Shown one piece after another: positions 27,712 through 62,783 of a stretch of DNA of 64,000 bases. The first letter of the stretch is position 1, and every line of letters begins with the position of its first letter. The position numbers were made by a program, and so were the translations under genes. A model generated the notes under the pieces. The model saw only the letters and a program-made list of their open reading frames with translations. It was not told the DNA's origin and did not search any database. Source of the DNA: Escherichia phage TH12; the sequence record MT446390.1; one strand, given 5' to 3'.

Positions 27712-29525
27712 AAATTGAAAAAGAAATTGAAGGATTAATTTATAAAACTAATAAAGATCTTTTGAACGAGAATGCTAATAAAGATTCTCGTGTTTTTCCA
27801 ACTCAACGGGACCTTATGGCTGGTATTGTGTCTAAGCACATTGCCAAAAATATGGTCCCGTCTTTTATTATGAATGCGCATGAAAGCGGAATCATTCATA
27901 TGCATGATATTGATTATTCTCCTGCTCTTCCGTTTACTAATTGTTGTTTAGTCGATTTAAAGGGGATGCTTGAGAATGGATTTAAATTAGGCAATGCTCA
28001 AATTGAAACGCCTAAATCGATTGGTGTTGCTACTGCAATTATGGCACAAATTACTGCACAAGTTGCTTCCCATCAGTATGGCGGAACTACATTTGCGAAT
28101 GTCGATAAAGTTCTTTCTCCTTATGTTAAACGTACATACGCTAAACATGTTGAAGATGCAGAAAAATGGCAAATACCAGACATTCTGAATTATGCTCAAT
28201 CTAAAACAGAAAAAGACGTATACGATGCATTCCAAGCTTATGAATATGAGGTAAATACTCTTTTTAGTTCAAACGGTCAAACGCCTTTTGTAACAATTAC
28301 ATTTGGTACTGGAACTGATTGGACCGAACGAATGATTCAGAAAGCAATTCTGAAAAATCGGATTAAAGGTCTCGGTCGTGATGGAATAACTCCTATTTTT
28401 CCTAAACTTGTTATGTTTGTTGAAGAAGGTGTTAATCTTTATAAAGATGATCCGAACTATGATATTAAACAACTTGCGTTAGAATGTGCAAGCAAAAGAA
28501 TGTATCCTGACATTATTTCGGTTAAGAATAATAAAGCTATTACTGGTTCTTCAGTTCCAGTTTCTCCAATGGGTTGCCGTAGTTTCTTGAGTGTATGGAA
28601 AGATTCGACTGGTAATGAAATTCTTGATGGACGTAATAATCTCGGTGTTGTAACACTGAATCTTCCTCGCATCGCGTTAGATTCTTATATTGGAACACAG
28701 TTCAATGAACAGAAATTTGTTGAGCTATTTAATGAACGAATGGATCTGTGCTTTGAAGCCTTGATGTGTAGAATTAGTTCCTTAAAAGGAGTTAAAGCGA
28801 CTGTTGCTCCTATTCTTTACCAAGAAGGTGCATTCGGGGTTCGTCTTAAACCTGATGACGACATAATTGAGTTATTTAAAAACGGTAGAAGTTCAGTGTC
28901 TTTAGGATACATTGGTATTCACGAATTGAATATTCTTGTCGGACGTGATATTGGACAAGAAATTTTAACTAAAATGAATGCTCATCTTAAACAGTGGACC
29001 GAAAGAACTGGATTTGCTTTTAGCTTATATTCTACTCCTGCTGAAAACCTTTGTTATCGCTTCTGTAAACTTGATACAGAAAAATATGGAAGTGTAAAAG
29101 ATGTCACTGATAAAGGCTGGTACACTAACAGTTTCCATGTTTCAGTAGAAGAAAATATTACTCCGTTTGAAAAGATTTCTCGTGAAGCCCCATATCATTT
29201 CATTGCGACAGGCGGTCACATTTCTTATGTTGAACTTCCTGATATGAAAAATAACCTAAAAGGTCTTGAGGCTGTATGGGATTATGCTGCACAACATTTA
29301 GATTATTTTGGTGTTAATATGCCAGTAGATAAATGTTTTACATGTGGAAGTACTCATGAAATGACTCCTACTGAAAATGGATTTGTTTGTTCAGTTTGCG
29401 GAGAAACTGATCCTAAAAAGATGAACACTATAAGAAGGACCTGCGGTTATTTGGGAAATCCGAACGAGCGCGGATTTAATCTAGGCAAAAATAAAGAAAT
29501 CATGCATAGGGTTAAACACCAATGA
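27708..29525 (+). CDS. nrdD: anaerobic ribonucleotide reductase, uninterrupted
   Basis: 605 aa, C-terminal glycyl-radical motif RTCGYLG; matches T4 NrdD. Confidence 0.95.
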   Translation: MKIEKEIEGLIYKTNKDLLNENANKDSRVFPTQRDLMAGIVSKHIAKNMVPSFIMNAHESGIIHMHDIDYSPALPFTNCCLVDLKGMLENGFKLGNAQIETPKSIGVATAIMAQITAQVASHQYGGTTFANVDKVLSPYVKRTYAKHVEDAEKWQIPDILNYAQSKTEKDVYDAFQAYEYEVNTLFSSNGQTPFVTITFGTGTDWTERMIQKAILKNRIKGLGRDGITPIFPKLVMFVEEGVNLYKDDPNYDIKQLALECASKRMYPDIISVKNNKAITGSSVPVSPMGCRSFLSVWKDSTGNEILDGRNNLGVVTLNLPRIALDSYIGTQFNEQKFVELFNERMDLCFEALMCRISSLKGVKATVAPILYQEGAFGVRLKPDDDIIELFKNGRSSVSLGYIGIHELNILVGRDIGQEILTKMNAHLKQWTERTGFAFSLYSTPAENLCYRFCKLDTEKYGSVKDVTDKGWYTNSFHVSVEENITPFEKISREAPYHFIATGGHISYVELPDMKNNLKGLEAVWDYAAQHLDYFGVNMPVDKCFTCGSTHEMTPTENGFVCSVCGETDPKKMNTIRRTCGYLGNPNERGFNLGKNKEIMHRVKHQ

Positions 29526-29992
29526 ATTATGATAGATTTTATCCTTGCGATTTTGTGAATGGTCCTGGTTGTAGGGTCGTTCTTTTCGTTACGGGGTGTT
29601 TGCATAAATGCGAAGGGTGTTATAATAAATCAACATGGAATGCTAGAAATGGTATTCCATTCACTGGTGAAACACTAGAACAATTAATTGAATGTTTGAA
29701 TAATTATTATATAGAAGGATTAACTATAACCGGAGGAGACCCTCTCTATCCTGATAACCGAGATGTTATTCATTACATTGTTCAAACAGTAAAAAATCTT
29801 TATCCCAATAAAAGCATTTGGTTGTGGACAGGATATAAGTTTGAAGATATTAAACAGCTAGAAATGCTTAAATATGTTGATGTTATTATTGATGGGAAGT
29901 ATGAGAAAAATCTTCCGACCAAAAAGCTGTGGCGAGGATCAGATAATCAGCGACTTTGGTCAAATACCGATGGGGTGTGGAAACATGATTAA
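29522..29992 (+). CDS. nrdG: anaerobic RNR activating enzyme (radical SAM)
   Basis: CLHKCEGC CxxxCxxC motif; ATGA-coupled to nrdD. Confidence 0.9.
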   Translation: MNYDRFYPCDFVNGPGCRVVLFVTGCLHKCEGCYNKSTWNARNGIPFTGETLEQLIECLNNYYIEGLTITGGDPLYPDNRDVIHYIVQTVKNLYPNKSIWLWTGYKFEDIKQLEMLKYVDVIIDGKYEKNLPTKKLWRGSDNQRLWSNTDGVWKHD

Positions 29993-41785: not shown

Positions 41786-44497
41786 ATGAAAGAATTTTAC
41801 TTAACGGTTGAACAGATTGGTGATTCAATTTTTGAACGTTACATCGATTCTAATGGCCGTGAACGTACTCGTGAAGTAGAATATAAACCATCGTTGTTTG
41901 CACATTGTCCAGAAAGTCAGGCTACTAAATATTTCGATATCTACGGTAAACCTTGTACTCGTAAGTTGTTCGCTAATATGCGTGATGCCTCCCAATGGAT
42001 TAAACGCATGGAAGATATCGGACTTGAAGCACTTGGCATGGACGATTTCAAATTGGCGTATTTGTCTGACACTTATAACTATGAAATCAAATACGACCAT
42101 ACAAAAATTCGTGTGGCTAACTTCGACATCGAAGTAACATCTCCGGATGGGTTCCCTGAGCCGTCACAAGCAAAACATCCGATTGATGCTATCACCCATT
42201 ATGACTCAATTGACGACAGGTTCTACGTATTTGATCTATTGAATTCTCCGTATGGTAATGTAGAAGAATGGTCTATCGAAATTGCGGCTAAGCTTCAAGA
42301 ACAAGGCGGTGATGAAGTTCCATCTGAAATTATCGATAAAATCATTTATATGCCATTCGATAACGAAAAAGAATTGTTGATGGAATATCTCAACTTCTGG
42401 CAACAGAAAACTCCTGTCATTTTGACTGGATGGAACGTTGAGTCATTTGATATTCCATATGTGTATAACCGAATCAAGAATATTTTTGGCGAATCTACTG
42501 CGAAACGTTTATCACCACATCGTAAAACTCGTGTTAAAGTTATCGAAAACATGTATGGTTCTCGTGAAATCATTACATTGTTCGGTATCTCTGTTCTTGA
42601 TTACATTGACCTTTACAAAAAATTCTCTTTTACCAATCAACCGTCGTATTCTCTGGATTACATTTCAGAATTTGAATTGAACGTTGGTAAACTGAAATAT
42701 GACGGCCCTATTTCTAAGCTTCGTGAAAGCAATCACCAACGATATATAAGCTATAACATCATCGACGTGTATCGTGTATTGCAAATTGATGCTAAGCGCC
42801 AGTTCATCAACTTGAGTTTGGACATGGGTTATTATGCTAAGATACAGATTCAATCTGTGTTTAGCCCAATTAAAACATGGGATGCTATTATTTTTAATAG
42901 CCTTAAAGAGCAGAACAAGGTGATTCCACAAGGTCGTTCTCACCCGGTTCAACCTTATCCTGGCGCTTTTGTTAAGGAACCTATTCCAAATCGATACAAA
43001 TATGTAATGAGTTTCGACCTTACATCTCTGTATCCAAGTATTATTCGCCAAGTGAATATTAGCCCAGAAACAATAGCAGGAACGTTTAAAGTAGCTCCAT
43101 TGCATGATTATATTAACGCAATCGCTGAACGTCCTTCAGATGTGTACAGTTGCTCCCCTAACGGCATGATGTATTATAAAGACCGTGATGGTGTAGTTCC
43201 AACTGAAATCACTAAGGTCTTTAATCAACGTAAAGAACATAAAGGTTACATGCTTGCAGCTCAACGTAATGGTGAAATAATTAAAGAGGCATTGCATAAT
43301 CCTAATCTTTCTGTTGACGAACCATTAGATGTTGATTATCGTTTCGACTTCACTGATGAGATTAAAGAAAAGATTAAAAAGTTGTCTGCTAAATCTCTTA
43401 ATGAAATGTTGTTTAGAGCTCAACGTACTGAAGTTGCAGGTATGACTGCACAGATTAACCGTAAATTGCTCATCAACTCACTTTATGGTGCACTTGGCAA
43501 CGTTTGGTTCCGTTATTATGATTTGCGTAATGCTACTGCAATCACAACATTTGGTCAAATGGCTTTACAATGGATTGAACGTAAAGTTAATGAATATCTG
43601 AACGAAGTTTGTGGTACAGAAGGTGAAGCTTTCGTTCTTTATGGTGATACAGACTCTATTTACGTATCTGCAGATAAAATTATTGATAAGGTTGGTGAAT
43701 CTAAATTCCGTGATACCAACCATTGGGTAGACTTCTTAGATAAGTTCGCACGTGAACGTATGGAACCAGCTATTGATAAAGGTTTCCGTGAAATGTGTGA
43801 ATACATGAACAATAAACAACACTTAATGTTCATGGACCGAGAAGCTATCGCTGGTCCTCCGCTTGGTTCTAAAGGTATTGGCGGATTCTGGACTGGTAAG
43901 AAACGTTATGCATTAAACGTGTGGGATATGGAAGGAACCAGATACGCTGAGCCTAAACTCAAAATCATGGGTCTCGAAACACAGAAATCTTCGACCCCTA
44001 AAGCAGTACAGAAAGCTCTTAAAGAATGTATTCGCCGTATGCTTCAAGAAGGTGAAGAATCATTACAAGAATATTTTAAAGAGTTTGAAAAAGAATTCCG
44101 TCAATTGAATTATATTAGCATCGCGTCGGTATCTTCTGCGAATAACATTGCTAAATATGACGTTGGTGGATTCCCTGGTCCTAAATGTCCGTTCCATATT
44201 CGTGGAATTCTGACATATAACCGAGCTATCAAAGGTAATATTGATGCTCCACAAGTTGTAGAAGGCGAAAAGGTATACGTTCTGCCTTTACGTGATGGAA
44301 ACCCGTTCGGTGATAAATGTATCGCATGGCCTTCTGGTACTGAAATCACAGATTTAATTAAAGACGACGTACTTCATTGGATGGACTACACTGTTCTCCT
44401 TGAGAAGACATTTATTAAACCACTTGAAGGATTCACATCAGCAGCGAAACTCGATTACGAGAAGAAAGCATCTCTGTTCGATATGTTCGATTTTTGA
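41786..44497 (+). CDS. 43: DNA polymerase gp43 (family B), RB69-type
   Basis: 903 aa; exo motif FDIEV, pol motifs SLYPS and YGDTDS; matches recalled RB69 gp43. Confidence 0.98.
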   Translation: MKEFYLTVEQIGDSIFERYIDSNGRERTREVEYKPSLFAHCPESQATKYFDIYGKPCTRKLFANMRDASQWIKRMEDIGLEALGMDDFKLAYLSDTYNYEIKYDHTKIRVANFDIEVTSPDGFPEPSQAKHPIDAITHYDSIDDRFYVFDLLNSPYGNVEEWSIEIAAKLQEQGGDEVPSEIIDKIIYMPFDNEKELLMEYLNFWQQKTPVILTGWNVESFDIPYVYNRIKNIFGESTAKRLSPHRKTRVKVIENMYGSREIITLFGISVLDYIDLYKKFSFTNQPSYSLDYISEFELNVGKLKYDGPISKLRESNHQRYISYNIIDVYRVLQIDAKRQFINLSLDMGYYAKIQIQSVFSPIKTWDAIIFNSLKEQNKVIPQGRSHPVQPYPGAFVKEPIPNRYKYVMSFDLTSLYPSIIRQVNISPETIAGTFKVAPLHDYINAIAERPSDVYSCSPNGMMYYKDRDGVVPTEITKVFNQRKEHKGYMLAAQRNGEIIKEALHNPNLSVDEPLDVDYRFDFTDEIKEKIKKLSAKSLNEMLFRAQRTEVAGMTAQINRKLLINSLYGALGNVWFRYYDLRNATAITTFGQMALQWIERKVNEYLNEVCGTEGEAFVLYGDTDSIYVSADKIIDKVGESKFRDTNHWVDFLDKFARERMEPAIDKGFREMCEYMNNKQHLMFMDREAIAGPPLGSKGIGGFWTGKKRYALNVWDMEGTRYAEPKLKIMGLETQKSSTPKAVQKALKECIRRMLQEGEESLQEYFKEFEKEFRQLNYISIASVSSANNIAKYDVGGFPGPKCPFHIRGILTYNRAIKGNIDAPQVVEGEKVYVLPLRDGNPFGDKCIAWPSGTEITDLIKDDVLHWMDYTVLLEKTFIKPLEGFTSAAKLDYEKKASLFDMFDF

Positions 44498-44537
44498 TAT
44501 AATGCCATGGACGGTAAACTAATTAAATGAGAGAAAT

Positions 44538-45173
44538 ATGAAAACTACACCAATCACTATCGCTATTGACGCAATCGTAAAACAAGCTTCATCTCTTGCC
44601 ACTATGGCTAAAGTAATTAGTCAAAACTCTGCCCGATATAATGCTATTCTTGAAACTCTTCGTCGCCCTGGACTGAGTAATTATGAAAGCCGAGTAATTA
44701 TTACAGGTGTTGGTAAGAACGCTAATATCGCAACTAAAGCTTCCGAGACTTTTGCTTCACTAGGTATTCCTAGCATGTATTTGAACACCGGGCATTATTC
44801 TCATGGCGACGCAGGGTTTATTGCACCTAATGATGTATTAGTTCACATCAGTCGTTCTGGTAAGACTGAAGAAATGATAGGTGTTGCTAAACATCTTCGT
44901 ATGATTCGTCCTCAGGTTAAACAGATTCTGTTACATTGTAACCCTGACATTCCGCAAGAATACGAAGCTCTTTTTGATTATACGTTCTGTACAGGCATCG
45001 CGGTAGAGGTTGATGAGAATTCTCTGGCTCCGACCATGTCCACTACATTGTTGTTAGCGCTTATCGATACGTTTGCTATCAACCTTTCGTCTGAACGTGG
45101 ATTTACCTCTAATGACTTCCTTAAGTTCCACCCTGGTGGTGCACTAGGTGCCATGTTACGAGGCGAACAATGA
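44538..45173 (+). CDS. SIS-domain sugar-phosphate isomerase (arabinose-5-phosphate isomerase-like)
   Basis: SIS motifs ITGVGKN and SRSGKTEE. Confidence 0.7.
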   Translation: MKTTPITIAIDAIVKQASSLATMAKVISQNSARYNAILETLRRPGLSNYESRVIITGVGKNANIATKASETFASLGIPSMYLNTGHYSHGDAGFIAPNDVLVHISRSGKTEEMIGVAKHLRMIRPQVKQILLHCNPDIPQEYEALFDYTFCTGIAVEVDENSLAPTMSTTLLLALIDTFAINLSSERGFTSNDFLKFHPGGALGAMLRGEQ

Positions 45174-45313
45174 AAGCAATAACAATAGGACTTTTACTAT
45201 TGATGCTTGTCATGACTATCTACTGGAGCTTAACGGCTCCAGTAATGATTCCGACTCTTATAATCGGATGGATTATGATTGGACTACAAACAAAGTATGA
45301 ATGCTTTAACTAG
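45170..45313 (+). CDS. small membrane protein (47 aa), absent from track
   Basis: ATGA-coupled to isomerase gene; hydrophobic throughout. Confidence 0.35.
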   Translation: MKAITIGLLLLMLVMTIYWSLTAPVMIPTLIIGWIMIGLQTKYECFN

Positions 45314-45326
45314 AATAGTGTACAAT
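45299..45326 (+). promoter_or_regulatory. candidate MotA-dependent middle promoter
   Basis: gaaTGCTTTA, 12 nt, TACAAT, about 30 nt upstream of ATG 45355. Confidence 0.35.
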
Positions 45327-45354
45327 ACACCTACTTACCAATGAGGACCACAAC

Positions 45355-47040
45355 ATGAAAAAAGCTGTTATTCTTGGTGCTGGACTGGCAACTCGTTTGT
45401 ATCCAATAACGCACCATATTCCTAAGGTGCTTGTTAACTATAAACAAGACACTATTCTGAGCAATTTGTATACAATTTATTCTGACCTTGGTGCAGATGA
45501 AATTATTGTAGTAGTTCATTCAAAATTTGTTGAAACTGTTCGAGCTTATTGTGAGCAAGAAGGGTTCAATGTGACTATTCGTACAGTTGATGAAGCGTAT
45601 GGTTCTGCTTATGCTCTTGCTAAATTATACAAAGATTTAGATGGCCATAATGTAATTGTTAACTGGTGTGATATTATTCCTGATTTTGGTTCATGGTCTT
45701 GGAATGTTAACGCAATCTATGTTAAGGGTGACGAATGTCGATATAATTTCGACGGTGAAAATATCACTAGCGTAGGTTCAACAGGTGGTAATGTTGTAGG
45801 AATTTATCAGTTCAAAGACTGGGAATTCTATATGGGTTCTACTGATGAGGAAATTCATGAATACTGCAAAGGACGTGATTTCGTAGAATTCCTTTACGGC
45901 AGCGCATTCAATAAATCAGAGCTTATGAATCTAATTGATTTAGGTGATATGCCTAAACTTGAAAAAGCTCATGAAGTTCGTGAACTTAATCGTAGTTTTA
46001 ATGCAGTTGAAATTGGTGAAGAAACTGTAACTAAATTCGCATTAACCGAACAGGGCCGAGCTCTTCAGAAAGATGAGATTTCATGGTATCTTAAAGTGAA
46101 ATCAGATTCAGTTCCTCAGTTAGTTTCTGTTAATGAAAATAACTTTGAAATGGAACGCATTAAAGGTAAGCCGGCATTTGAATATATTAAATCCAAATCG
46201 AGTCTTGCTCGTCCACAAATTGTTGATGCAATTTTAGATGCACTGAAATTCAGCACAGACACTTATTTTGTAAGTCCTGAAACTGTTCGTCGTGATTTCA
46301 CTAAAGAATTCTATACGAAAGTTATTGATCGTTGTGAAAGCATTCAACCATTGATTGATTCATTTGGTAAAATCACACATGTGAACTACACTAAGATTGG
46401 ACGTCTGAAGCCAATGCTGAAACAAGCTTTAGAACACCTTATTCGTTATCATAACCGTTCTCAGGGACAGTACTCTGTTATTCATGGTGACCCGAACTTC
46501 AGTAATACTATGATTACTGATAACGGCGAAGTCAAGTTTATCGACCCTCGTGGATATTTTGGCGAAACCAAGATTTACGGGCCAAAATTGTACGATGAAG
46601 CTAAAGTGCTTTATGCTGTTTCAGGTTATGATGAATTCAATGCTAATCCGACCTGGGGACAGTTTACTATTGATGAAACAACTTGTAATGTGACTATTAA
46701 CATCAATCCATTAATTTACAAATATGGAAAGATGAGTTCGTTTAACGAGTATCATCATTTGGCGGTGGCAATTATCTGGATTGCATTAGGTGGTTATTTC
46801 AAGAATAATCCACTTAAAGCGGTAGCCGCATATTATAAAGGTATGGAACTTCTGACTAAGCAATTACGCAACATGGGCCGTGTACTTCAAGACGGCTCTA
46901 TTAGTTATGACGTAGCAGAACCTGTAACGGCTACTCTGATTACAAAAAATCCTGGTAAATGGGTACTAACTGATAAAGAAACTGGTGTTTCCTATCGTCC
47001 AATCGGTGGCGATATCACTCATCAATGGGAACGAATCTAA
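45355..47040 (+). CDS. bifunctional sugar-1-phosphate nucleotidyltransferase / anomeric sugar kinase fusion (MurU-AmgK-like)
   Basis: N-terminus GAGLATRLYP; C-terminus HGDPNFSNTMI ... FIDPRGYFG. Confidence 0.65.
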   Translation: MKKAVILGAGLATRLYPITHHIPKVLVNYKQDTILSNLYTIYSDLGADEIIVVVHSKFVETVRAYCEQEGFNVTIRTVDEAYGSAYALAKLYKDLDGHNVIVNWCDIIPDFGSWSWNVNAIYVKGDECRYNFDGENITSVGSTGGNVVGIYQFKDWEFYMGSTDEEIHEYCKGRDFVEFLYGSAFNKSELMNLIDLGDMPKLEKAHEVRELNRSFNAVEIGEETVTKFALTEQGRALQKDEISWYLKVKSDSVPQLVSVNENNFEMERIKGKPAFEYIKSKSSLARPQIVDAILDALKFSTDTYFVSPETVRRDFTKEFYTKVIDRCESIQPLIDSFGKITHVNYTKIGRLKPMLKQALEHLIRYHNRSQGQYSVIHGDPNFSNTMITDNGEVKFIDPRGYFGETKIYGPKLYDEAKVLYAVSGYDEFNANPTWGQFTIDETTCNVTININPLIYKYGKMSSFNEYHHLAVAIIWIALGGYFKNNPLKAVAAYYKGMELLTKQLRNMGRVLQDGSISYDVAEPVTATLITKNPGKWVLTDKETGVSYRPIGGDITHQWERI

Positions 47041-47426
47041 TGCACCGTGTAGAAAACATGCTTAATCTTTGTTTTGATGTCGATGATTGTATAACAGAGT
47101 GGAATAACAATCGTGATTACGTGAACTTCAAACCAGACGTCGAAATGGTGTCTGCCATTAATGCCCTGTATGATGCAGGGCATACCATAACGCTTTACAC
47201 TGCTCGTGGTATGAAGTCAGTAGGTCCTGGTCGTATAGCAATTGACATTCTCCCAAGTCTGATTCAGAACTTGGCAAACATTGGCTTGAAGTACCATAAT
47301 TTGCTAACACATAAACCAGTATATGATTGGATTATCGACGACAAAGCTATGCGTCCTGACGAATTCAAAGCTCTTATGAATAAAGGCGAATTCGAAACAT
47401 TTAAATCGTATAAACCGAATCTATAA
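47040..47426 (+). CDS. HAD-superfamily phosphatase-like protein
   Basis: HAD motif I FDVDDCIT near N-terminus; start may be 47025 or 47058. Confidence 0.55.
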   Translation: MHRVENMLNLCFDVDDCITEWNNNRDYVNFKPDVEMVSAINALYDAGHTITLYTARGMKSVGPGRIAIDILPSLIQNLANIGLKYHNLLTHKPVYDWIIDDKAMRPDEFKALMNKGEFETFKSYKPNL

Positions 47427-47484
47427 TAATTTAAGTAAGACCTGCAAAAAAACCATCGCATCAATTAACGCGAGATGCAAAAAA

Positions 47485-48645
47485 ATGAATACTTTTAAAA
47501 TCGGAACGAATTTTGATTTAGCTCTTCTTGATAAAATCGTAGAGCTCAATAAAACCTATCCTAATAGCTTGATAAACGAAGTATATGGCTCTACAAGAGA
47601 AATGGCTTTTGTAGCAGCCAGACCTGATTTTAGGCTTCCTGACGTTGACAAAAAGATGTTAGAAGACTACGTTAAACGTTGTAACGAATTAGGTATTTGC
47701 TTTAACTATACACTCAACACGATAAATCCTGGTTCAAAAAGAGAACTAGTTGAGTGGAAGAAGAAAGCTATTCAGGATTATGTTCAGTATCTTTGGTCAA
47801 TAGGCGTATGGCGTATTACTATCGCTAACCCTGTTGTTATGGAAATTGTTCGTGAAGTCAATAAAGATATTGAGATTGAAGTTTCAACAATTCTACATGT
47901 CGATGCGGTAACTCAAATCAAATACTTACATGACCAATATAACATCAAAAAGGTCTGTTGCGGAATTCATAAGAACCGTTCAGTTTCTTTCCTGAAGCGT
48001 GCAGCAGAGTTTTGCAATAAGAACAATATAATATTTGAAGTTCTTGTAAATGAGTTCTGTTCTAATGCTGGTAAAGGGTATACAACACATTGTAGTTATC
48101 GTGACTCTTGCTATATTTTCCATAGTACTGATGTTACAGCTGATGATGCTAAATCCTTAAATGGATATCCAATGCAACACTGCATTAAAGCTCGTGATAC
48201 AGACCCATTTAACTGGTTGAGAACTCGTTTTGTTCGTCCTCAAGATTTGAAACTTTATAATGATATTGGTATCACTCAATTCAAAGTTTCAGGACGTACA
48301 GGTAGCACAGACTACATTTTGAAAGTTCTTGAAGCATACGCTTCTGAAAAGTTTGAAGGTAATTTGTTAGAACTGTGGAAGCCTTTAGAGACTATTTTCA
48401 CTCTTGAAAATGAGACTGAGTTTTCACATACAGTAAATATTGAAACCTCTTTGTTAGATGGCTTTTTAGAAAAAAGGTGGTTCAGACATCCAGATTTTGA
48501 TTGTGCTAATGAAATCTGTGGGTCAACGTGTACATATTGTGAAAGGTATTATAAACGTCAATTATCTAAAAACGGGTTAGCAGAAAACTCCATATCTATT
48601 ATTGATATAACTAACTCTGATGACGCTTTGAGGTACCCGGAATGA
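47485..48645 (+). CDS. Cys-rich putative Fe-S enzyme (386 aa); weak peptidase-U32-like features
   Basis: YTLNT motif, C-terminal CxxxCxxC; family call is tentative. Confidence 0.35.
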   Translation: MNTFKIGTNFDLALLDKIVELNKTYPNSLINEVYGSTREMAFVAARPDFRLPDVDKKMLEDYVKRCNELGICFNYTLNTINPGSKRELVEWKKKAIQDYVQYLWSIGVWRITIANPVVMEIVREVNKDIEIEVSTILHVDAVTQIKYLHDQYNIKKVCCGIHKNRSVSFLKRAAEFCNKNNIIFEVLVNEFCSNAGKGYTTHCSYRDSCYIFHSTDVTADDAKSLNGYPMQHCIKARDTDPFNWLRTRFVRPQDLKLYNDIGITQFKVSGRTGSTDYILKVLEAYASEKFEGNLLELWKPLETIFTLENETEFSHTVNIETSLLDGFLEKRWFRHPDFDCANEICGSTCTYCERYYKRQLSKNGLAENSISIIDITNSDDALRYPE

Positions 48646-48881
48646 TTTCTAGAAAAAGTTTTAATTATAAACTTAACGAAGAGATTTTGACTATGAAACT
48701 GAACACTAACGAACAAATTCTTAAAAAGGCCCTTATGGGCCTGTTTGAAACCAAAGCGGCTAAAGTGATTAAAGAACCTGTTCAATTGGAATACTACACT
48801 GATGCATTCCTTCATAGTGTTCTTGGAAGTATAGATTCTGAAGCTTTACGTTATATCAACATTGTCAAGAAATTCAAATAA
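48642..48881 (+). CDS. hypothetical protein (79 aa)
   Basis: ATGA overlap. Confidence 0.45.
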   Translation: MISRKSFNYKLNEEILTMKLNTNEQILKKALMGLFETKAAKVIKEPVQLEYYTDAFLHSVLGSIDSEALRYINIVKKFK

Positions 48882-48923
48882 GCTTTATGAATTGAGTATA
48901 TAATAAATTGTATTGAGGTAAAT

Positions 48924-49640
48924 ATGGGAAAACATAACACAATGAAATATATCAAAGCCGCAGATTTTCAAACCGCATTTAAAGCAGTCAATCGTGAAAT
49001 TTTAGAAAACCCCGAATTCGTAACTGATTCTCGTATTGGACGTTGTAATGAAATTGGGTCTATGACAGTAGTTGTTGACACTCCATCATCATTCAAAATG
49101 ACCGACCCACGTATTAACCGCATCTCTTATGAATATGCCGAAGACTTCTGGAAGTTTATGATTTCTGGTGGTACCAACGCAGAAGAAGCGTTTAAGGCAT
49201 ATCCTAATGTCGCTAAATTTATTTCTAAACCAAAATCAGATGTTTTGCCGGCGAACTTCAACACTTTCTATGGTCCTCGCATTGCGGCCCAATTACCAAC
49301 TCTTCTAAAAGAACTTAAAGAAAAACCTAACTCTCGAAGAGTTGTGTTCCAAATTCTAGAAAGTTCTGATCAGGCTTTGCTTGATTCGGACGAAACACTT
49401 GAATATCCATGTACTGACTCAGTAACTTATTATATTCGTGATGGTAAGCTTTATACCCACTGTCATATGCGTTCTCAGAACTGTGCTGTTGTTATGCAGT
49501 TGGATTTTTATCTCCAAGGAAAATTACTTCATTATATCGCTAACGAATGTGGTGTAGAAGTTGGTGATTATACTCATACCATGGTAAGTGCCCATGTGTT
49601 TGAACGTGATTTTGATTATGTTAAAGGATTCCTTGACTAA
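48924..49640 (+). CDS. 42: thymidylate-synthase-fold pyrimidine hydroxymethylase (dCMP hydroxymethylase, gp42 position), divergent
   Basis: NSRR, YPCTD, MRSQN..D motifs; position between 43 and uvsX. Confidence 0.6.
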   Translation: MGKHNTMKYIKAADFQTAFKAVNREILENPEFVTDSRIGRCNEIGSMTVVVDTPSSFKMTDPRINRISYEYAEDFWKFMISGGTNAEEAFKAYPNVAKFISKPKSDVLPANFNTFYGPRIAAQLPTLLKELKEKPNSRRVVFQILESSDQALLDSDETLEYPCTDSVTYYIRDGKLYTHCHMRSQNCAVVMQLDFYLQGKLLHYIANECGVEVGDYTHTMVSAHVFERDFDYVKGFLD

Positions 49641-50539
49641 TGGCTATTTTCCGCGTACCAATCTTGAGTATGCGGTCTTATGAAACTGGACAGTATGCTA
49701 TCCTTAAGGATGGCAACTTCCAACTTCATTTGCACCGTGCTAATCCGGGTGATGTGATTACATATCCACGTAATGCATCTGATATTAAAGAATGCGAACG
49801 TCTTTTCCCAGAATTTAAGTTTGTTCCATTATGGTATAAAGATAACGCGTATAACACTCGTAAATATTTCTGGACTGAAAATGAATTTGTGGTTGATTCA
49901 TTAATTGATTATTATGATTGTGATTTTCTAATCACAGATATCACTGGTTATGGCGGCGCTTTTGATGTGGAATTCAATTTCAATATCACTGCAGACCCTA
50001 ATAAACCACGTTTTTATATTGATGAATTCTTAAAAACCGACATGTTGTCTGTTAATCGTTCACTTCAAACTACTGTGTTGAATGAACGTCAAAAAGGAGT
50101 GCTGGTTAACGCAGGTGCAGATGGTAATAAGATTATCGTAACGCAGAAAGTTATACGTCCTTCCATCATGCAGCGTCTTGTAGGTGATTTGGCTCCTATT
50201 CATCTAGATGGTATTTTTCATCCATTTCGAATTAGTGACCCATGTTATCGTTTTGAACAAGTGGTTGAATGTGCAATTCAATTAGGTCAACCGCTTTATA
50301 TAACCGATCCAAATAATAGCTTCGACAGAAATAAGTATCCTGAAGAAGCGCTGATTCGAATTTTTAAACCAACTAAAACTGAGTACTATCAAATTCTTAA
50401 AGGACGTCCGAAAATTCAATATTTCGAAAATCCTGAAGAAGTATTCCATCCAGGTCTTGGTGAGTTCATCTACTTTAATGCTTTAATTTCTTCGCCGTAT
50501 AATATACCTAAATACGAAGATGTCGTAATCGAGGAATAA
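49640..50539 (+). CDS. hypothetical protein (299 aa) at the T4 beta-gt position; candidate DNA glycosyltransferase
   Basis: Position only; no resemblance to T4 beta-gt. Confidence 0.35.
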   Translation: MAIFRVPILSMRSYETGQYAILKDGNFQLHLHRANPGDVITYPRNASDIKECERLFPEFKFVPLWYKDNAYNTRKYFWTENEFVVDSLIDYYDCDFLITDITGYGGAFDVEFNFNITADPNKPRFYIDEFLKTDMLSVNRSLQTTVLNERQKGVLVNAGADGNKIIVTQKVIRPSIMQRLVGDLAPIHLDGIFHPFRISDPCYRFEQVVECAIQLGQPLYITDPNNSFDRNKYPEEALIRIFKPTKTEYYQILKGRPKIQYFENPEEVFHPGLGEFIYFNALISSPYNIPKYEDVVIEE

Positions 50540-50540
50540 A

Positions 50541-51089
50541 ATGGCTAAAATTATTTTAGTAGACGGCCCAGATAATGCTGGTAAAACAACTTTCATTAAT
50601 GACATAATGGAAATTAGTGAAAGATATGTAAAGATTGATTTCCCTAAACGAACAGTTGATGGACGTTTCGATGTTAAGTCTCGAAATGAAGTTGGTTGTT
50701 TCGAAACGATGTTGAATTATTTAGACCCTACTAAGATTTATCTGTTAGACCGTGGATATATTAGTAACTGGGTTTATGGACGTATTCGACAAGATGCGGA
50801 CTCGGTTCTTGACGTTTATGAACAGGACTATGTTCGTCTTTGCCAAAACCATGATGTGTTCACAATTATTTTAACACGTAACGAAATGACTGAAAGTTTT
50901 GAAGACGACCTTATTACTTTGTCTTCATTCGGTTTTAATACAGTCGTTTCACATTTTGAAGAGTTTGCAATTCATAACAAAATCCAAACATATCAATTAC
51001 TTAATCATGATGGTGCTAACAAAGTTATAGGATTTAATGCAAGCGAACGTAATTGTTTGATTACAGAAATCATCAAATGGGCTCGTTAA
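50541..51089 (+). CDS. P-loop kinase-like protein (182 aa)
   Basis: Walker A DGPDNAGKTT at N-terminus. Confidence 0.5.
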   Translation: MAKIILVDGPDNAGKTTFINDIMEISERYVKIDFPKRTVDGRFDVKSRNEVGCFETMLNYLDPTKIYLLDRGYISNWVYGRIRQDADSVLDVYEQDYVRLCQNHDVFTIILTRNEMTESFEDDLITLSSFGFNTVVSHFEEFAIHNKIQTYQLLNHDGANKVIGFNASERNCLITEIIKWAR

Positions 51090-51187
51090 GAGCCATTTAA
51101 AGTTTTAAATGCTGTATAACCCTTAGTATATAATCGTCTTATCTTTTAAACATGAGTAAAATATAATGATGCCTATGGAAAAATACA

Positions 51188-52360
51188 ATGTCTGATTTAA
51201 AATCTCGTCTGATTAAAGCTTCTACTTCTAAAATGACTGCGGACTTGACTAAGTCTAAGCTGTTTAATAATCGTGATGAAGTCCCTACTCGTATTCCGAT
51301 GTTGAATATCGCACTAGGTGGTGCTCTGAATGCAGGATTGCAATCAGGCTTGACTATTTTTGCTGCACCTTCTAAACACTTTAAAACGCTGTTTGGACTA
51401 ACTATGGTTGCAGCGTATATGAAGAAATATAAAGATGCAATCTGTTTGTTTTATGACTCAGAATTTGGTGCTTCAGAATCTTATTTTCGTTCAATGGGTG
51501 TTGATTTAGACCGTGTAGTTCATACTCCGATTCAATCTGTCGAACAACTTAAAGTTGATATGACTAATCAGCTTGACGCGATTGAACGCGGTGATAAAGT
51601 TATTATCTTTATCGATTCAATCGGTAATACTGCATCTAAGAAAGAAACCGAAGATGCATTGAATGAGAAAGTCGTAGGTGATATGTCTCGTGCTAAGGCA
51701 CTTAAATCTCTGTTCCGTATTGTGACTCCTTATCTGACTATTAAAGATATTCCATGTGTTGCAATCAACCATACAGCAATGGAAATCGGCGGATTGTATC
51801 CTAAAGAGATTATGGGCGGTGGTACAGGTATTCTTTATTCTGCCAACACGGTATTTTTTATCTCTAAACGTCAGGTTAAAGAAGGTACAGAATTGACCGG
51901 TTATGACTTCACGTTGAAAGCGGAAAAATCTCGTACAGTTAAAGAGAAATCTACTTTCCCGATCACGGTTAATTTTGATGGCGGTATTGACCCATTCAGT
52001 GGCTTGTTAGAAATGGCAACTGAAATTGGTTTTGTAGTTAAGCCTAAAGCCGGGTGGTATGCTCGTGAATTCCTTGACGAAGAAACAGGCGAAATGATTC
52101 GTGAAGAGAAATCATGGCGTGCTAAAGCTACTGATTGTGTAGAATTCTGGGGACCTTTGTTTAAACATAAGCCTTTCCGAGATGCAATTGAAACTAAATA
52201 TAAACTAGGTGCTATCTCTTCTATTAAAGAAGTTGATGACGCTGTTAACGACCTTATTAATTGCAAAGCAACAACTAAAGTTCCGGTTAAAGCTTCTGAT
52301 GCTCCGTCTGCAGCAGATATAGAAAACGACCTTGACGAAATGGAAGATTTCGATGAATAA
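51188..52360 (+). CDS. uvsX: RecA-like recombinase UvsX
   Basis: MSDLKSRLIKASTSK ... matches T4 UvsX (390 aa). Confidence 0.95.
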   Translation: MSDLKSRLIKASTSKMTADLTKSKLFNNRDEVPTRIPMLNIALGGALNAGLQSGLTIFAAPSKHFKTLFGLTMVAAYMKKYKDAICLFYDSEFGASESYFRSMGVDLDRVVHTPIQSVEQLKVDMTNQLDAIERGDKVIIFIDSIGNTASKKETEDALNEKVVGDMSRAKALKSLFRIVTPYLTIKDIPCVAINHTAMEIGGLYPKEIMGGGTGILYSANTVFFISKRQVKEGTELTGYDFTLKAEKSRTVKEKSTFPITVNFDGGIDPFSGLLEMATEIGFVVKPKAGWYAREFLDEETGEMIREEKSWRAKATDCVEFWGPLFKHKPFRDAIETKYKLGAISSIKEVDDAVNDLINCKATTKVPVKASDAPSAADIENDLDEMEDFDE

Positions 52361-52694
52361 TCTCGATGATTTAAATCTAGAAATCGTTGATGAATCCCCT
52401 TCTTCGGAAGGGGAAGACATTCGCAAAGAACGAGTGTTTAATGAATCTCTTAAAATTATCCGTTCAGCAATGGAAAATGTCATTCAAGAGATTCTGATTA
52501 CACTTGAAGACGGTTCTCATCATATAGTCTATATTACAAAACTAGACTGGGTTGATGGTAAAATCGTAATGGACTTTGCAGTTCTTGACCAGGACAGAAA
52601 AGCAGAACTTGCACCACATGTTGAAAAATGTGTTACAATGCAGGTACAACAAGCTTTTAATGAACGAACCAAGAAAAAATTTAAATTCTTTTAA
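52353..52694 (+). CDS. 40: gp40-like protein (by position)
   Basis: Position between uvsX and 41; overlaps uvsX stop. Confidence 0.45.
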   Translation: MNNLDDLNLEIVDESPSSEGEDIRKERVFNESLKIIRSAMENVIQEILITLEDGSHHIVYITKLDWVDGKIVMDFAVLDQDRKAELAPHVEKCVTMQVQQAFNERTKKKFKFF

Positions 52695-59074: not shown

Positions 59075-59163
59075 AATATCTCCTTAGTTACCTATTATTT
59101 ATTACGCTTTATAAAATTAATGTTAGAATTAAACTCTCTTACACTGAATTGAAAGGAAAAATA

Positions 59164-59685
59164 ATGGCGCACTTTAACGAATGTTCACAACTTATTTCTG
59201 GTGTTGATAAAGCAGAAGAAGCTTATTTTAATGCTCTGATTCACGAAGATAAAGACCCACTGCAGGTAATGCTTGATATGCAGAAATCTTTACAGGTTCG
59301 TTTGGCAAATGACAAGCCTGAACATAACAAACATCCTGATGAATTGGCTACTGCCGGTGATGTTGTTGATTGGCTGCGTAATCAGAAAGATTATATTGAT
59401 GATGAATTCCGTGAACTGTTGACTTCACTTGGCGGTATGAGCAATGGTGAAAAAGCCGCCAGCAGTGTATGGAAGCCGTGGAAAGCACAACATGCCGAAT
59501 ATCGTAATCGTCGTATCGATGAACTGTCTCCTGAAGACCAGCTTGAAATTAAATTCGAGATGATTGATATCCTCCACTTTGTTCTGAACATGTTCCAAGG
59601 CCTTGGACTTACTGCAGAAGAAATCTTTAAACTTTACTACTTGAAAAACCAACACAACTTTGAACGCCAGGATAATGGTTACTAA
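59164..59685 (+). CDS. 56: dCTP pyrophosphatase gp56-like
   Basis: MAHFNECSQLISGVD... recalled as T4 gp56-like; position. Confidence 0.6.
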   Translation: MAHFNECSQLISGVDKAEEAYFNALIHEDKDPLQVMLDMQKSLQVRLANDKPEHNKHPDELATAGDVVDWLRNQKDYIDDEFRELLTSLGGMSNGEKAASSVWKPWKAQHAEYRNRRIDELSPEDQLEIKFEMIDILHFVLNMFQGLGLTAEEIFKLYYLKNQHNFERQDNGY

Positions 59686-61535: not shown

Positions 61536-62117
61536 ATGACATGTCAATCTGAACTTCAAGAACGCGAATACCTAACAAATCTGATTGATAGCAAATTCAC
61601 CCGCCAAGAACAAAACATTCTCTGGGCTTGCACTGATTCTAAGGAAGACCCAGATTTCCACTATGAATTAGACCATCTTGTCCGTAAGCATATGACTTCT
61701 ACAGTACCAGTAGAACTCTACCGTGGTGTAACTCCAGAAGAAGTAGAACGTCTTTCCCTTCTTTCTGTTGGATGCCATTGGTCTCCTGGACGCGCGACAT
61801 CATTCACAACTGATTTCAGTACAGCTCGTCAATTCTCTGGGAGATGGGAATATCAAACGTACACTATTCTTAGTCTTCGAAATGCTCCATTCATTTTTGA
61901 TTACTACCAAAACATGGTTAACATTATACTCGCTGGAAAGAATCCTAAGCATGTTATGGAAGAAACGCGTGTTGACGTCCTAGATATGATTGAATCTGAA
62001 CAAGAATACATGGTCTCAGGTATCTCTAGATTTGAGATTGTGGAAATTGAAGACTTAGAATATGACCCTTTATCTCGGTTATACAAAATCATTCATTTGA
62101 AAATGTTGAATTTTTAG
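61536..62117 (+). CDS. modB: ADP-ribosyltransferase (ModB-like by position)
   Basis: R-S-E type ART motifs (YRG ... TTDFSTA); tandem paralog of next gene. Confidence 0.55.
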   Translation: MTCQSELQEREYLTNLIDSKFTRQEQNILWACTDSKEDPDFHYELDHLVRKHMTSTVPVELYRGVTPEEVERLSLLSVGCHWSPGRATSFTTDFSTARQFSGRWEYQTYTILSLRNAPFIFDYYQNMVNIILAGKNPKHVMEETRVDVLDMIESEQEYMVSGISRFEIVEIEDLEYDPLSRLYKIIHLKMLNF

Positions 62118-62174: not shown

Positions 62175-62783
62175 ATGTTTATGCCGTATAACGAGTGTGA
62201 AATTGAAGAAATGGTTCGTCGTGCTCAAAACCCCGAATATCAAGATGTATTGCAGTACGAAATTGATAGTCAATTCAGCGACATTGAACAAAGTGTACTG
62301 TGGCAGTGTATGGAAAACAAGCCAGATAGCATCCAACAGGAGTTAAGTTCAATCGTTCGTAGAAATTGGACGTCTTCTGTTCCTGAGACAATGTATCGTG
62401 GAATCTCTAAGAAAACTATGGCCACACTTGATGATAAAGGCATTGGTAGTATTATTAAATTTGACAGAGTAATGAGCTTCAGCCCAGTGTTCGGTGTAGC
62501 ACGTAACTTTGCTTCGTATAATTTTTACGGAACATTTAATATGTTCTGCATCAAAGATGCACCATTTGCTTTCAACTTCCGTGAACATATGCTTAATATG
62601 ATTCTGGCTGCGCCATCTTGCGAGTTCAATGGAGCTTTCCCTGAAGCAACAAGACGGTCTAATGCTAGACTTATATCTGACGAATGCGAATTTATGCTCC
62701 CTATAGGGACTACACTGCGTGTAGATTCTATTATTCAAGATGGACGTTATACAATCTGGAATCTGTCTATTGTCAGTTACTGA
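62175..62783 (+). CDS. modA: ADP-ribosyltransferase (ModA-like by position)
   Basis: YRG ... SFSPVFGVARNF; paralog of 61536. Confidence 0.55.
   Translation: MFMPYNECEIEEMVRRAQNPEYQDVLQYEIDSQFSDIEQSVLWQCMENKPDSIQQELSSIVRRNWTSSVPETMYRGISKKTMATLDDKGIGSIIKFDRVMSFSPVFGVARNFASYNFYGTFNMFCIKDAPFAFNFREHMLNMILAAPSCEFNGAFPEATRRSNARLISDECEFMLPIGTTLRVDSIIQDGRYTIWNLSIVSY

Follow-up and report, generated by a model that had tools for sequence, protein, structure and literature searches.

The locus and its gene content

The 64,000-nucleotide stretch of Escherichia phage TH12 DNA analysed here (the window) is Mosigvirus DNA and shares 98.8% identity with phage CCU7 across 12 kb. The open reading frame under study opens with an ATG at position 48924 and is the only gene of the thymidylate synthase (TS) family in the window; no additional gp42 or td gene of the canonical type turned up in a tblastn search across the entire 64 kb. 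It lies in a complete arabinosylation cluster (Table 1) that comprises an arabinose-5-phosphate isomerase, AfhE-like and AfhF-like proteins, an arabinosyltransferase and a nucleotide kinase. The equivalent of RB69 gp52:53 is present as a single intact ORF, and the arabinosyltransferase gene is translationally coupled to the TS-family gene through a TAATG overlap. The arabinosyltransferase was also considered as a divergent form of the T4 beta-gt, but a similarity between the two was not detectable. An earlier note on this DNA, made from the sequence alone, had placed the ORF at the gene 42 position, and the gene order agrees with this placement: as in T4, a TS homolog is followed by a gene for a DNA glycosyltransferase and then by uvsX.

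Judged by the consensus of T4 middle promoters, the GCTTTA and TATAAT elements that precede the gene form a putative T4-type middle promoter. A generic sigma-70 promoter and terminator scan of positions 44300-52500 was uninformative, since it returned 23 promoter-like sites against 30.2 expected.

Table 1. Genes, sequence motifs and upstream signals of the arabinosylation locus in the window
Feature	Position	Strand	Basis and remarks
Arabinose-5-phosphate isomerase (RB69 gp55 equivalent)	44538..45173	+	NCBIfam KpsF/GutQ, KdsD; phrog_5670
Bifunctional sugar kinase/nucleotidyltransferase for UDP-arabinose (RB69 gp52:53, HY126 AfhE)	45355..47040	+	Pfam NTP_transferase and kinase-like; PMC13326640
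HAD-type sugar phosphatase (RB69 gp51, HY126 AfhF)	47025..47426	+	NCBIfam TIGR01689 capsule biosynthesis phosphatase; PMC13326640
U32-family protein (RB69 gp50 equivalent)	47485..48645	+	Pfam Peptidase_U32; candidate O2-independent hydroxylase (hypothesis)
79-aa ORF (RB69 gp49 equivalent)	48642..48881	+	ATGA overlap couples the ORF to the U32 gene
Upstream signals (putative)	48882..48918	+	MotA-box-like GCTTTA 48882-48887, 11-nt spacer, TATAAT 48899-48904, Shine-Dalgarno GAGG 48915-48918
dCMP C5-hydroxylase gene (5hodCMP synthase; assignment very probable)	48924..49640	+	238 aa, TS fold; ORF, PF00303, RB69 gp48/HY126 AfhB orthology
NSRR (aa 136-139)	49329..49340	+	R138/R139 = E. coli ThyA R126/R127 (nucleotide phosphate binding); 76/76 homologs
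E160-Y-P-C163-T-D	49401..49418	+	Glu160 = ThyA L143; Cys163 = catalytic C146; E160 and C163 in 76/76 homologs
MRSQN...D	49467..49505	+	R183/S184 = ThyA R166/S167; Asn186 = D169; Asp194 = N177; 76/76 homologs
DNA arabinosyltransferase 1 (RB69 gp46:47 equivalent)	49640..50539	+	phrog_3891; PMC13326640 Table 1
Thymidylate-kinase-like nucleotide kinase (RB69 gp45 equivalent)	50541..51089	+	phrog_761; PMC13326640 Table 1
dCTPase (gp56 homolog)	59149..59685	+	phrog_173, phrog_18650

Fold and conserved residues

Membership of the TS/dCMP-hydroxymethylase superfamily, as proposed in the earlier note, is borne out by a match to PF00303 (Thymidylat_synt; 57.2 bits, cut-off 24.3), whose aligned part covers only residues 122-235, and by the alignment of Cys163 with the catalytic C146 of E. 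coli ThyA. An AF2 model of the protein (pLDDT 87.7) reaches TM scores of 0.94 to PDB entry 9iqc, 0.83-0.85 to MilA and 0.70-0.79 to ThyA structures, which points to a TS fold over the whole chain. The three motifs that the note had singled out are all present: NSRR, YPCTD (residues 161-165, nucleotides 49404-49418) and MRSQN (residues 182-186, nucleotides 49467-49481), the last followed by Asp194 (codon at 49503-49505). Asp194 falls on N177 of ThyA, so that the reported Asp at the position discriminating cytosine from uracil is indeed found there. Conservation of these residues was assessed over 76 homologs with 52-99% identity (Table 1). MAFFT sets an invariant Phe75 into the column of ThyA E58 and gp42 E60, while BLASTP aligns this helix otherwise; within the helix that matches the ThyA E58 region, no Glu is conserved at 90% or more in the hydroxylase family.

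The protein and ThyA share their fold, a nucleophilic Cys and the arginines for the phosphate, but they differ at N177 and D169, in the C-terminal tail that closes over the folate, and with regard to the reductive methylation of dUMP that ThyA carries out. The folate-closing tail is absent from the window protein, since its alignment stops about 40 residues before the end of ThyA.

Orthologs with established chemistry

RB69 gp48 (NP_861738.1) has the same length as the window protein and is identical to it at 235 of 238 positions, the substitutions (window to RB69) being N85D, V107A and T126A. AfhB from phage HY126 (PDB accession codes 9iqc, 9ir2 and 9iqu) is approximately 97% identical, with 6 substitutions. 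None of the differences from either protein affects a position that is invariant in the family; Asn85 of the window protein is replaced by Asp in 72 of the 76 homologs. Phage CEV1 encodes a protein identical to that of the window. RB69 gp48 and AfhB resemble the window protein in their gene neighbourhood and in Cys163, Asn186, Asp194 and Glu160, and by its sequence the window gene is an ortholog of both. In vitro reconstitution of the hydroxylase has reportedly been achieved by He et al. in 2026.

Lee et al. (NAR 2026, PMC13326640) expressed RB69 gp48 together with a dNMP kinase and found 5hodC in the DNA of E. coli, with a mass of 243 Da and in agreement with an authentic standard. In the same study, 18O from 18O2 entered the product, an FMN-like flavin co-purified with RB69 gp48, and the product was identified as 5-hydroxy-dCMP and not 5-hydroxymethyl-dCMP, with a retention time unlike that of the T4 gp42 product. 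The D169N replacement (E. coli ThyA numbering) was described there as the diagnostic signature of 5hodCMP synthases, and an Asp at the position of N177 as leading to a preference for dCMP (PMC13326640). The titles of the AfhB crystal structures name the enzyme as a 'Monooxygenase dependent on riboflavin with dCMP and FAD' (9iqc) and as 'phage HY126 dCMP hydroxylase-AfhB with substrate dCMP' (9iqu). Mosigvirus DNA contains arabinosyl-5-hydroxy-dC (PMC13326640; PMC13390438), and an older claim of arabinosyl-hmC in RB69 has since been corrected (PMC13390438). For orthologs with 97-99% identity to the window protein, published work has thus far demonstrated the 5hodC product, the O2-derived oxygen, the bound flavin and the structures with dCMP and FAD.

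On the strength of this sequence relationship, positions 48924-49640 almost certainly encode a Mosigvirus dCMP C5-hydroxylase that depends on flavin and O2 and would initiate the formation of arabinose-modified DNA. The activity is already known from RB69 gp48 and AfhB. As the enzyme class was established in 2025-2026 (Mahler, Lee, He et al.; 9iqc/9iqu), the window contributes only one more near-identical ortholog.

Distinction from folate-dependent TS homologs

The designation 'hydroxymethylase' given in the earlier note fails, because the 99% identical RB69 gp48 has been shown to make 5-hydroxy-dCMP (PMC13326640), and the structures with approximately 97% identity are those of a flavin-dependent dCMP hydroxylase. 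The underlying idea, a divergent folate-dependent dCMP hydroxymethylase that acts like T4 gp42 (PDB accession codes 1b5e and 1b49), draws on a set of shared traits. Both proteins have the TS fold and the catalytic Cys and act on dCMP, each carries Asp at N177 and an acidic residue at L143 (ThyA numbering), and both genes fill the slot that neighbours a DNA glycosyltransferase gene and uvsX; moreover, some GenBank records carry the annotation 'dCMP hydroxymethylase'. In ThyA and T4 gp42, Asp169 is a folate contact. T4 gp42 retains this residue within its 'MRSND' motif, whereas the window protein has the invariant Asn186 in its place and is identical to gp42 at just 54 of 218 positions (25%). 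While gp42 uses methylene-tetrahydrofolate (methylene-THF) and water to form a C-C bond and thereby a hydroxymethyl group, the hydroxylase uses flavin and O2 to form a C-O bond and a hydroxyl group. The AfhB structures contain FAD and not folate, the absence of 5hmdCMP formation from methylene-THF in vitro has in effect already been reported for the orthologs, and the arabinosyl-hmC once claimed for RB69 no longer stands. With 5hodC instead of 5hmdC as the product of RB69 gp48, we regard a gp42-like hydroxymethylase as highly improbable.

The earlier note had also perceived a stronger divergence from T4 at this gene than at the neighbouring replication genes, and the alignment with T4 gp42 confirms it: the identity of 25% compares with 61% for gp43, 68% for UvsX, 85% for gp41, 77% for gp44 and 74% for gp61, so that divergence across the region is uneven. 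A fast-evolving gp42 ortholog was considered as the explanation and rejected, since with gp42 as the query the AfhB structures reach 29.8 bits, which does not exceed the 30.5 bits of E. coli ThyA and falls short of the 43.4 bits of B. subtilis ThyA. Of the two causes suggested for this divergence, the tie to the unusual downstream sugar chemistry has held up, but a different substrate has not, as dCMP is still used and it is the cofactor and the product that differ.

MilA, a CMP hydroxymethylase (PDB accession codes 5b6d and 5jnh), provides the best fold match outside the orthologs (TM 0.83-0.85, 23% identity). It is unlike the window protein in its length of 318-325 amino acids, its folate dependence, its ribonucleotide substrate and its hydroxymethyl product. 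MilA is a TS homolog specific for cytosine and carries Asp at the N177 and L143 positions alike (PMC13326640). That this closest non-phage fold match (TM 0.85) prefers CMP could be taken to mean that the phage enzyme hydroxylates another pyrimidine nucleotide in vivo (dUMP, CMP or dCTP), with dCMP serving merely as the in vitro substrate. There is very little probability in this, given that dCMP is bound in the ortholog structure, that the in vivo assay yielded 5hodC in DNA, that Asp194 is invariant, and that the modified base in the phage DNA is C and not T. A thymidylate synthase converting dUMP to dTMP, although suggested by the PF00303 match, by phrog_160 ('thymidylate synthase') and by many GenBank annotations, has a negligible probability in view of the Asp in place of N177, which shifts the preference to dCMP (PMC13326640), of the NCBIfam ThyA equivalogs, all far under their cut-offs (68.7/174.55, 50.5/325, 50.4/108.35 and 47.2/327), of the missing folate-closing tail, and of the experimentally determined 5hodCMP product of the ortholog.

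Proposed reaction and its place in the pathway

For the flavin-dependent dCMP hydroxylase, we envision a reaction in which the TS scaffold and its nucleotide chemistry are kept and flavin takes the place of methylene-tetrahydrofolate. R138/R139 together with R183/S184 would grip the phosphate, and Asp194 would read the face of the cytosine. Cys163, the presumed nucleophile, would attack C6 of dCMP and render C5 nucleophilic; in the pocket that once held folate, reduced flavin would react with O2 to a flavin (hydro)peroxide, which would then donate its oxygen to C5, and elimination of the Cys would release 5-hydroxy-dCMP. We infer this order of chemical steps, as well as the roles of Asn186 and Glu160 in the hydroxylase. 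5-hydroxy-dCMP would subsequently be phosphorylated and built into the phage DNA instead of dC, with dCTP being destroyed by the gp56 dCTPase. Its 5-OH group would then be arabinosylated by the glycosyltransferase that is encoded directly downstream, using UDP-arabinose supplied by the products of the genes directly upstream. That the dCTPase would clear dCTP so that the modified nucleotide can replace dC follows from T4 gp56 and from Table 1 of PMC13326640.

The hydroxylase can be viewed as a folate-dependent scaffold that has been rebuilt for flavin- and O2-dependent monooxygenation, and as the entry point to glycosylated 5-hydroxycytosine modifications of DNA that shield phages against restriction enzymes and CRISPR. 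The studies by Mahler et al. in 2025 and He et al. in 2026 are said to be among those that established this class of modifications. Most database records still label the gene 'thymidylate synthase', 'dCMP hydroxymethylase' or 'hypothetical'; such records can be correctly re-annotated by means of the Asn186/Asp194/Glu160 signature.

The U32-family protein encoded two genes upstream

The product of the U32 gene matches PF01136 with 42.2 bits (cut-off 22.4), and its AF2 model (pLDDT 92.5) has the U32 protein 5d88 as its best fold match (TM 0.74 on the target); beyond 5d88, the fold search returned only generic TIM barrels, and a sequence search of the PDB gave no match. Ten Cys residues and H213 are invariant in 68 homologs; the invariant residues include C192, C203, C209, H213 and C233, and a second cluster is made up of C340/C345/C349/C352; these cysteine clusters resemble those of Fe-S proteins. 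When aligned by MAFFT with the canonical four-Cys motif of UbiU, UbiV, TrhP and RlhA, the protein keeps Cys1 (C192) and Cys3 (C209), and has Gly and His at the positions of Cys2 and Cys4, respectively.

The U32 relatives RlhA and TrhP are needed for ho5C and ho5U in RNA. UbiI/H/F, paired with UbiU/V, and TrhO, paired with TrhP, are O2-dependent hydroxylases that have anaerobic U32 counterparts (PMC10990095). These systems resemble the phage locus in outline, in that an O2-dependent hydroxylation of a (hetero)aromatic carbon (flavin-based for the Ubi enzymes) is accompanied by a U32 gene for the O2-free route; they are unlike it in that UbiI/H/F and TrhO have no homology to the TS-fold hydroxylase, and the pairing with U32 in the phage is hypothetical. 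By analogy, the TS-fold hydroxylase might serve only as the aerobic branch of a dual pathway, in which the U32 protein, along with the chorismate mutase of related phages (see below), would act as a prephenate-dependent, O2-independent pyrimidine C5-hydroxylase, a tentative proposal that we hold to be possible rather than probable. In the accessible literature, we found neither a link between U32, prephenate and phages nor an assay of O2-independent hydroxylation for a phage U32 protein, and the U32/chorismate-mutase module may be the part of this locus that is still new. If the dual pathway were true, 5-hydroxy-dC nucleotides could be made when facultatively anaerobic hosts grow free of O2, for instance in the gut; an anaerobic U32 hydroxylase would explain how gut phages modify their DNA without oxygen, and would extend prephenate-dependent hydroxylation to deoxynucleotides.

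In phage KLB31, a chorismate mutase gene (PF01817, 38.5 versus 27 bits) is situated between the U32 and hydroxylase genes, and it occupies the equivalent position in 48 related phage records; no chorismate mutase was found in the window. At a further locus (L014), a DAHP-synthase-like gene comes after the U32 homolog. Five metagenomic phage-like U32 contexts have as neighbours genes for a dCMP deaminase, a deoxynucleoside kinase, a deoxyribonucleotidase, a TAGT DNA glycosyltransferase or a DAHP-synthase-like protein, with no TS homolog nearby within the 7-8 kb viewed on either side. Among isolates, the phage U32 gene is confined to those infecting Enterobacterales and Shewanella; the clusters examined in phages of Acinetobacter and Pseudomonas lack it. 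A strict rule by which every phage of a facultative anaerobe would carry U32 was discarded, as the E. coli Dhakavirus JS10 possesses the hydroxylase cluster with neither U32 nor chorismate mutase. The 79-aa ORF was likewise rejected as a candidate chorismate mutase; it is unlike the KLB31 enzyme and has no Pfam match. In Yersinia phage TG1, a homolog of this ORF and a chorismate mutase gene are found adjacent to each other.

Identity and active-site residues of the thymidylate synthase-fold enzyme

No second thymidylate synthase (TS)-family gene is present in the 64 kb window beside that of the 238-aa protein, a near-identical ortholog of an already known enzyme. It is identical to RB69 ORF048c (gp48) at 235 of 238 positions and shares approximately 97% identity (six differences) with PDB chains 9iqc/9ir2 and 9iqu; the entries 9iqc and 9iqu, both released on 2025-07-16, are listed by the structure search as 'Monooxygenase dependent on riboflavin with dCMP and FAD' and 'phage HY126 dCMP hydroxylase-AfhB with substrate dCMP', respectively. 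Expression of RB69 gp48 together with a dNMP kinase in E. coli yielded 5-hydroxy-2'-deoxycytidine in the DNA, a product of 243 Da that was co-injected with an authentic standard and takes its oxygen from 18O2; when purified, gp48 has a yellow color and an FMN-like flavin can be released from it (Lee et al., NAR 2026, PMC13326640). He et al. (Nat Chem Biol 2026) are cited there for a flavin-containing crystal structure and in vitro reconstitution.

The Pfam TS profile (PF00303) matches only aa 122-235 (57.2 bits; cut-off 24.3), and an AlphaFold2 model built with 76 homologs (pLDDT 87.7) exhibits the TS fold across the whole chain. The protein shows the characteristics that define the TS superfamily, and every feature of the 5hodCMP synthase/AfhB group testable here is present. 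Residue equivalences were derived from an alignment with T4 gp42 and E. coli ThyA, the latter sequence verified against PDB 1aob. All motifs listed in the earlier note were found (NSRR, aa 136-139; YPCTD, aa 161-165; MRSQN, aa 182-186; then Asp194), and the alignment bears out its assignment of the catalytic Cys and of an Asp that specifies cytosine, with C163 falling on ThyA C146 and D194 on N177. R138/R139 correspond to R126/R127, R183/S184 to R166/S167, and E160 to L143. The position of ThyA D169, an Asp in both T4 gp42 (MRSND) and ThyA (QRSCD), is occupied by Asn186 in the window protein; Asn at this site is the diagnostic signature of Lee et al., validated on nine diverse homologs (PMC13326640). 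C163, N186, D194, E160, R138, R139, R183, S184 and H224 are invariant in the 76 homologs (52-99% identity). The alignment stops near ThyA residue 222, and the C-terminal tail of about 40 residues is absent. MAFFT places an invariant Phe75 in the ThyA E58 column; BLASTP aligns this helix otherwise, and the equivalence is hence alignment-dependent.

Codon 85 specifies Asn in place of the Asp seen in 72 of the 76 homologs, RB69 gp48 and HY126 AfhB among them; this change is probably tolerated, because phage CEV1 carries the same sequence with Asn85. The naming of this gene family in GenBank lacks consistency: 'thymidylate synthase', 'dCMP hydroxymethylase' or 'hypothetical protein' persists in many records, 'deoxycytidylate 5-hydroxymethyltransferase' is also in use, and the homolog of Acinetobacter phage Acj9, 61% identical to the window protein, is labelled 'Gp42 dCMP hydroxymethylase'.

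Relationship to T4 gp42 and ThyA

The gene lies, as the earlier note had proposed, at the gene 42 position: the order TS homolog, glycosyltransferase, kinase, uvsX corresponds to 42, beta-gt, (segA), uvsX in T4. The uneven divergence it described is likewise real, with 54/218 identical residues (25%) to T4 gp42 versus 61-85% for replication neighbors (gp43 61%, UvsX 68%, gp41 85%, gp44 77%, gp61 74%). The protein is nevertheless no fast-evolving gp42: in searches with T4 gp42 the AfhB structures reach 29.8 bits, compared with 30.5 for E. coli ThyA and 43.4 for B. subtilis ThyA. Because gp42 scores AfhB no higher than ThyA, and AfhB in turn gives 45-52 bits with bacterial ThyA and MilA, the hydroxylase is a separate branch of the superfamily occupying the same genomic slot as gene 42. 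The note's designation of the protein as a hydroxymethylase has to be abandoned: RB69 gp48 forms 5-hydroxy-dC and not the 5hmdC of T4 gp42 (PMC13326640), and a gp42-type enzyme is ruled out by the low identity and the absent Asp169. ThyA itself is excluded by NCBIfam equivalog scores that are all far below their cut-offs.

The suggested link between this divergence and the sugar chemistry encoded downstream holds in spirit; the arabinose is ether-linked directly to the 5-OH and not via a hydroxymethyl group (PMC13326640; PMC13390438), an earlier report of arabinosyl-hmC for RB69 having since been corrected (PMC13390438). Since no similarity to T4 beta-gt was found for the 299-aa glycosyltransferase encoded downstream, this partner has been exchanged as well, relative to T4.

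Orthologs convert dCMP to 5-hydroxy-dCMP with oxygen from O2 and a bound flavin (PMC13326640; PDB 9iqc, 9iqu). From TS chemistry and the conserved residues we infer that Cys163 would add to C6 of dCMP, that the resulting C5 nucleophile would attack a flavin (hydro)peroxide held at the usual folate site, and that elimination would then restore the pyrimidine. The Asp-to-Asn exchange at position 169 and the missing C-terminal tail are consistent with a lost use of folate; loss of the general base E58, dependent on the alignment, would possibly fit as well.

Genomic setting and arabinosylation pathway

TH12 belongs to the genus Mosigvirus and is a T4-type phage resembling RB69; its segment 41000-53000 shares 98.8% identity with Escherichia phage CCU7 and 97-98% with many further genomes of this genus. 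GAGG stands 5 bases 5' of the hydroxylase ATG, and the stop codon overlaps the next start in TAATG. Directly 5' of the gene, a MotA-box-like GCTTTA, an 11-nt spacer and TATAAT resemble a T4 middle promoter, in consensus only.

Features discussed in the text (window coordinates unless a locus is named)
Feature	Coordinates	Strand	Size	Equivalent or position
Anaerobic ribonucleotide reductase NrdD and activase NrdG	27708-29992	+		
Arabinose-5-phosphate isomerase	44538-45173			RB69 gp55; upstream of hydroxylase
Bifunctional kinase/nucleotidyltransferase	45355-47040	+	561 aa	RB69 gp52:53, HY126 AfhE; upstream
HAD phosphatase	47025-47426			RB69 gp51, HY126 AfhF; upstream of hydroxylase
U32-family protein	47485-48645	+	386 aa	RB69 gp50; two genes upstream, inside the 5-hydroxycytosine cluster
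Small ORF	48642-48881	+	79 aa	RB69 gp49
MotA-box-like GCTTTA, 11-nt spacer and TATAAT	48882-48904	+		
dCMP hydroxylase	48924-49640	+	238 aa	RB69 gp48, HY126 AfhB
Codon 85 of hydroxylase	49176-49178			
Arabinosyltransferase 1	49640-50539	+	299 aa	downstream of hydroxylase
Thymidylate-kinase-like kinase	50541-51089			downstream of hydroxylase
gp56 dCTPase homolog	59149-59685			
Paralogous phrog_832 ORFs	61536-62117; 62175-62783	+		adjacent
Homing endonuclease gene, phage a20 (L001)	6403-7164			between AfhE-like and AfhF-like genes
U32 cluster, locus L016	5495-13179		61 kb contig	Logan SRR33454321, phage-like

The equivalents of gp55, gp52:53 and gp51 jointly make UDP-arabinose (correspondence according to PMC13326640). 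The bifunctional enzyme and arabinosyltransferase 1 are each encoded by one intact ORF, in agreement with the published view that their splits in the RB69 reference (052/053 and 046/047) are sequencing errors. Unlike phage a20, the window has no homing endonuclease gene inserted between its AfhE-like and AfhF-like genes, which overlap by 16 nt (about 47025-47040). Elsewhere, each of two paralogous ORFs, a pair like T4 modA/modB, has a match to the RNA polymerase ADP-ribosylase family (phrog_832).

The U32 protein and a possible O2-independent route

For the U32 protein of the 5-hydroxycytosine cluster, no characterization was found in the accessible literature; Lee et al. list gp50 in a table only, as 'sugar or heterocycle reductase', without discussion (PMC13326640). 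Members of the U32 family include UbiU/UbiV, TrhP (ho5U34 in tRNA) and RlhA (ho5C2501 in 23S rRNA) (PMC10990095; see also PMC6599085, PMC5727448). Prephenate is the shown oxygen donor of the UbiU/V-dependent pathway, and a common prephenate-dependent, O2-independent hydroxylation chemistry has been proposed for the family, although direct hydroxylase activity has yet to be demonstrated for any U32 protein (PMC10990095). The model of the phage protein (pLDDT 92.5) has 5d88, the sole solved U32 structure, as its top fold match. Across 68 homologs (46-88% identity), ten Cys and one His never vary; they form a central group (C158, C177, C192, C203, C209, H213, C233) and a C-terminal CX4CX3CX2C. 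The canonical four-Cys motif of U32 proteins is only half kept (MAFFT alignment).

A genuine chorismate mutase of type II (PF01817, 38.5 bits vs 27), an enzyme whose product is prephenate, is encoded by the small gene that separates the U32 and TS homologs in Klebsiella phage KLB31. The same gene holds this position in 48 records, from phages of Klebsiella, Enterobacter, Edwardsiella, Serratia, Yersinia, Pectobacterium, Erwinia and others. No chorismate mutase is present in the window, where a different gene takes that position; the 79-aa ORF, whose ATGA overlap with the U32 gene couples the two in translation, has the length and position of the KLB31 chorismate mutase, yet is unrelated to it. 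Phage records with this ORF number 162, and the two genes co-occur in Yersinia phage TG1.

The U32 gene was found in 221 records of isolated phages, every named host belonging to the Enterobacterales or Shewanella. Acinetobacter phage AbTZA1 and Pseudomonas phage PspYZU05 lack it in their clusters; because it is missing from E. coli phage JS10 too, the gene is accessory and not essential. On long, phage-like contigs from metagenomes (L011-L016), homologs with an identity of about 50-58% adjoin deoxynucleotide genes, and the 7-8 kb on either side of them contain no TS homolog. A dCMP deaminase gene is located directly upstream in L011 and L015; the neighbors in L012 and L013 encode a deoxyribonucleotidase (NT5C), a deoxynucleoside kinase (dNK) and a deoxyribosyltransferase. 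In L014, a DAHP-synthase-like gene comes after the U32 homolog, a context that can be read either way because the locus also has sugar-type genes. The L016 row comprises a thymidylate-kinase-like gene, the U32 homolog, a DNA glycosyltransferase of the TAGT family, a dUTPase/dCTP-deaminase (DCD)-family gene and UDP-galactopyranose mutase (GLF), and a TS-fold gene is absent within 7 kb; it looks like a DNA hypermodification cluster with U32 standing in for the base-modifying enzyme.

Since the window encodes NrdD/NrdG, the phage has the equipment to replicate under anoxic conditions, in which an O2-dependent hydroxylase could not work. Taken together, the chorismate mutase, the invariant Cys and His residues, the deoxynucleotide neighbors, the host range and NrdD/NrdG make it a reasonable, if still tentative, hypothesis that 5-hydroxy pyrimidine deoxynucleotides can be formed by an O2-independent route via U32, and the U32 protein a candidate prephenate-dependent, O2-independent hydroxylase.
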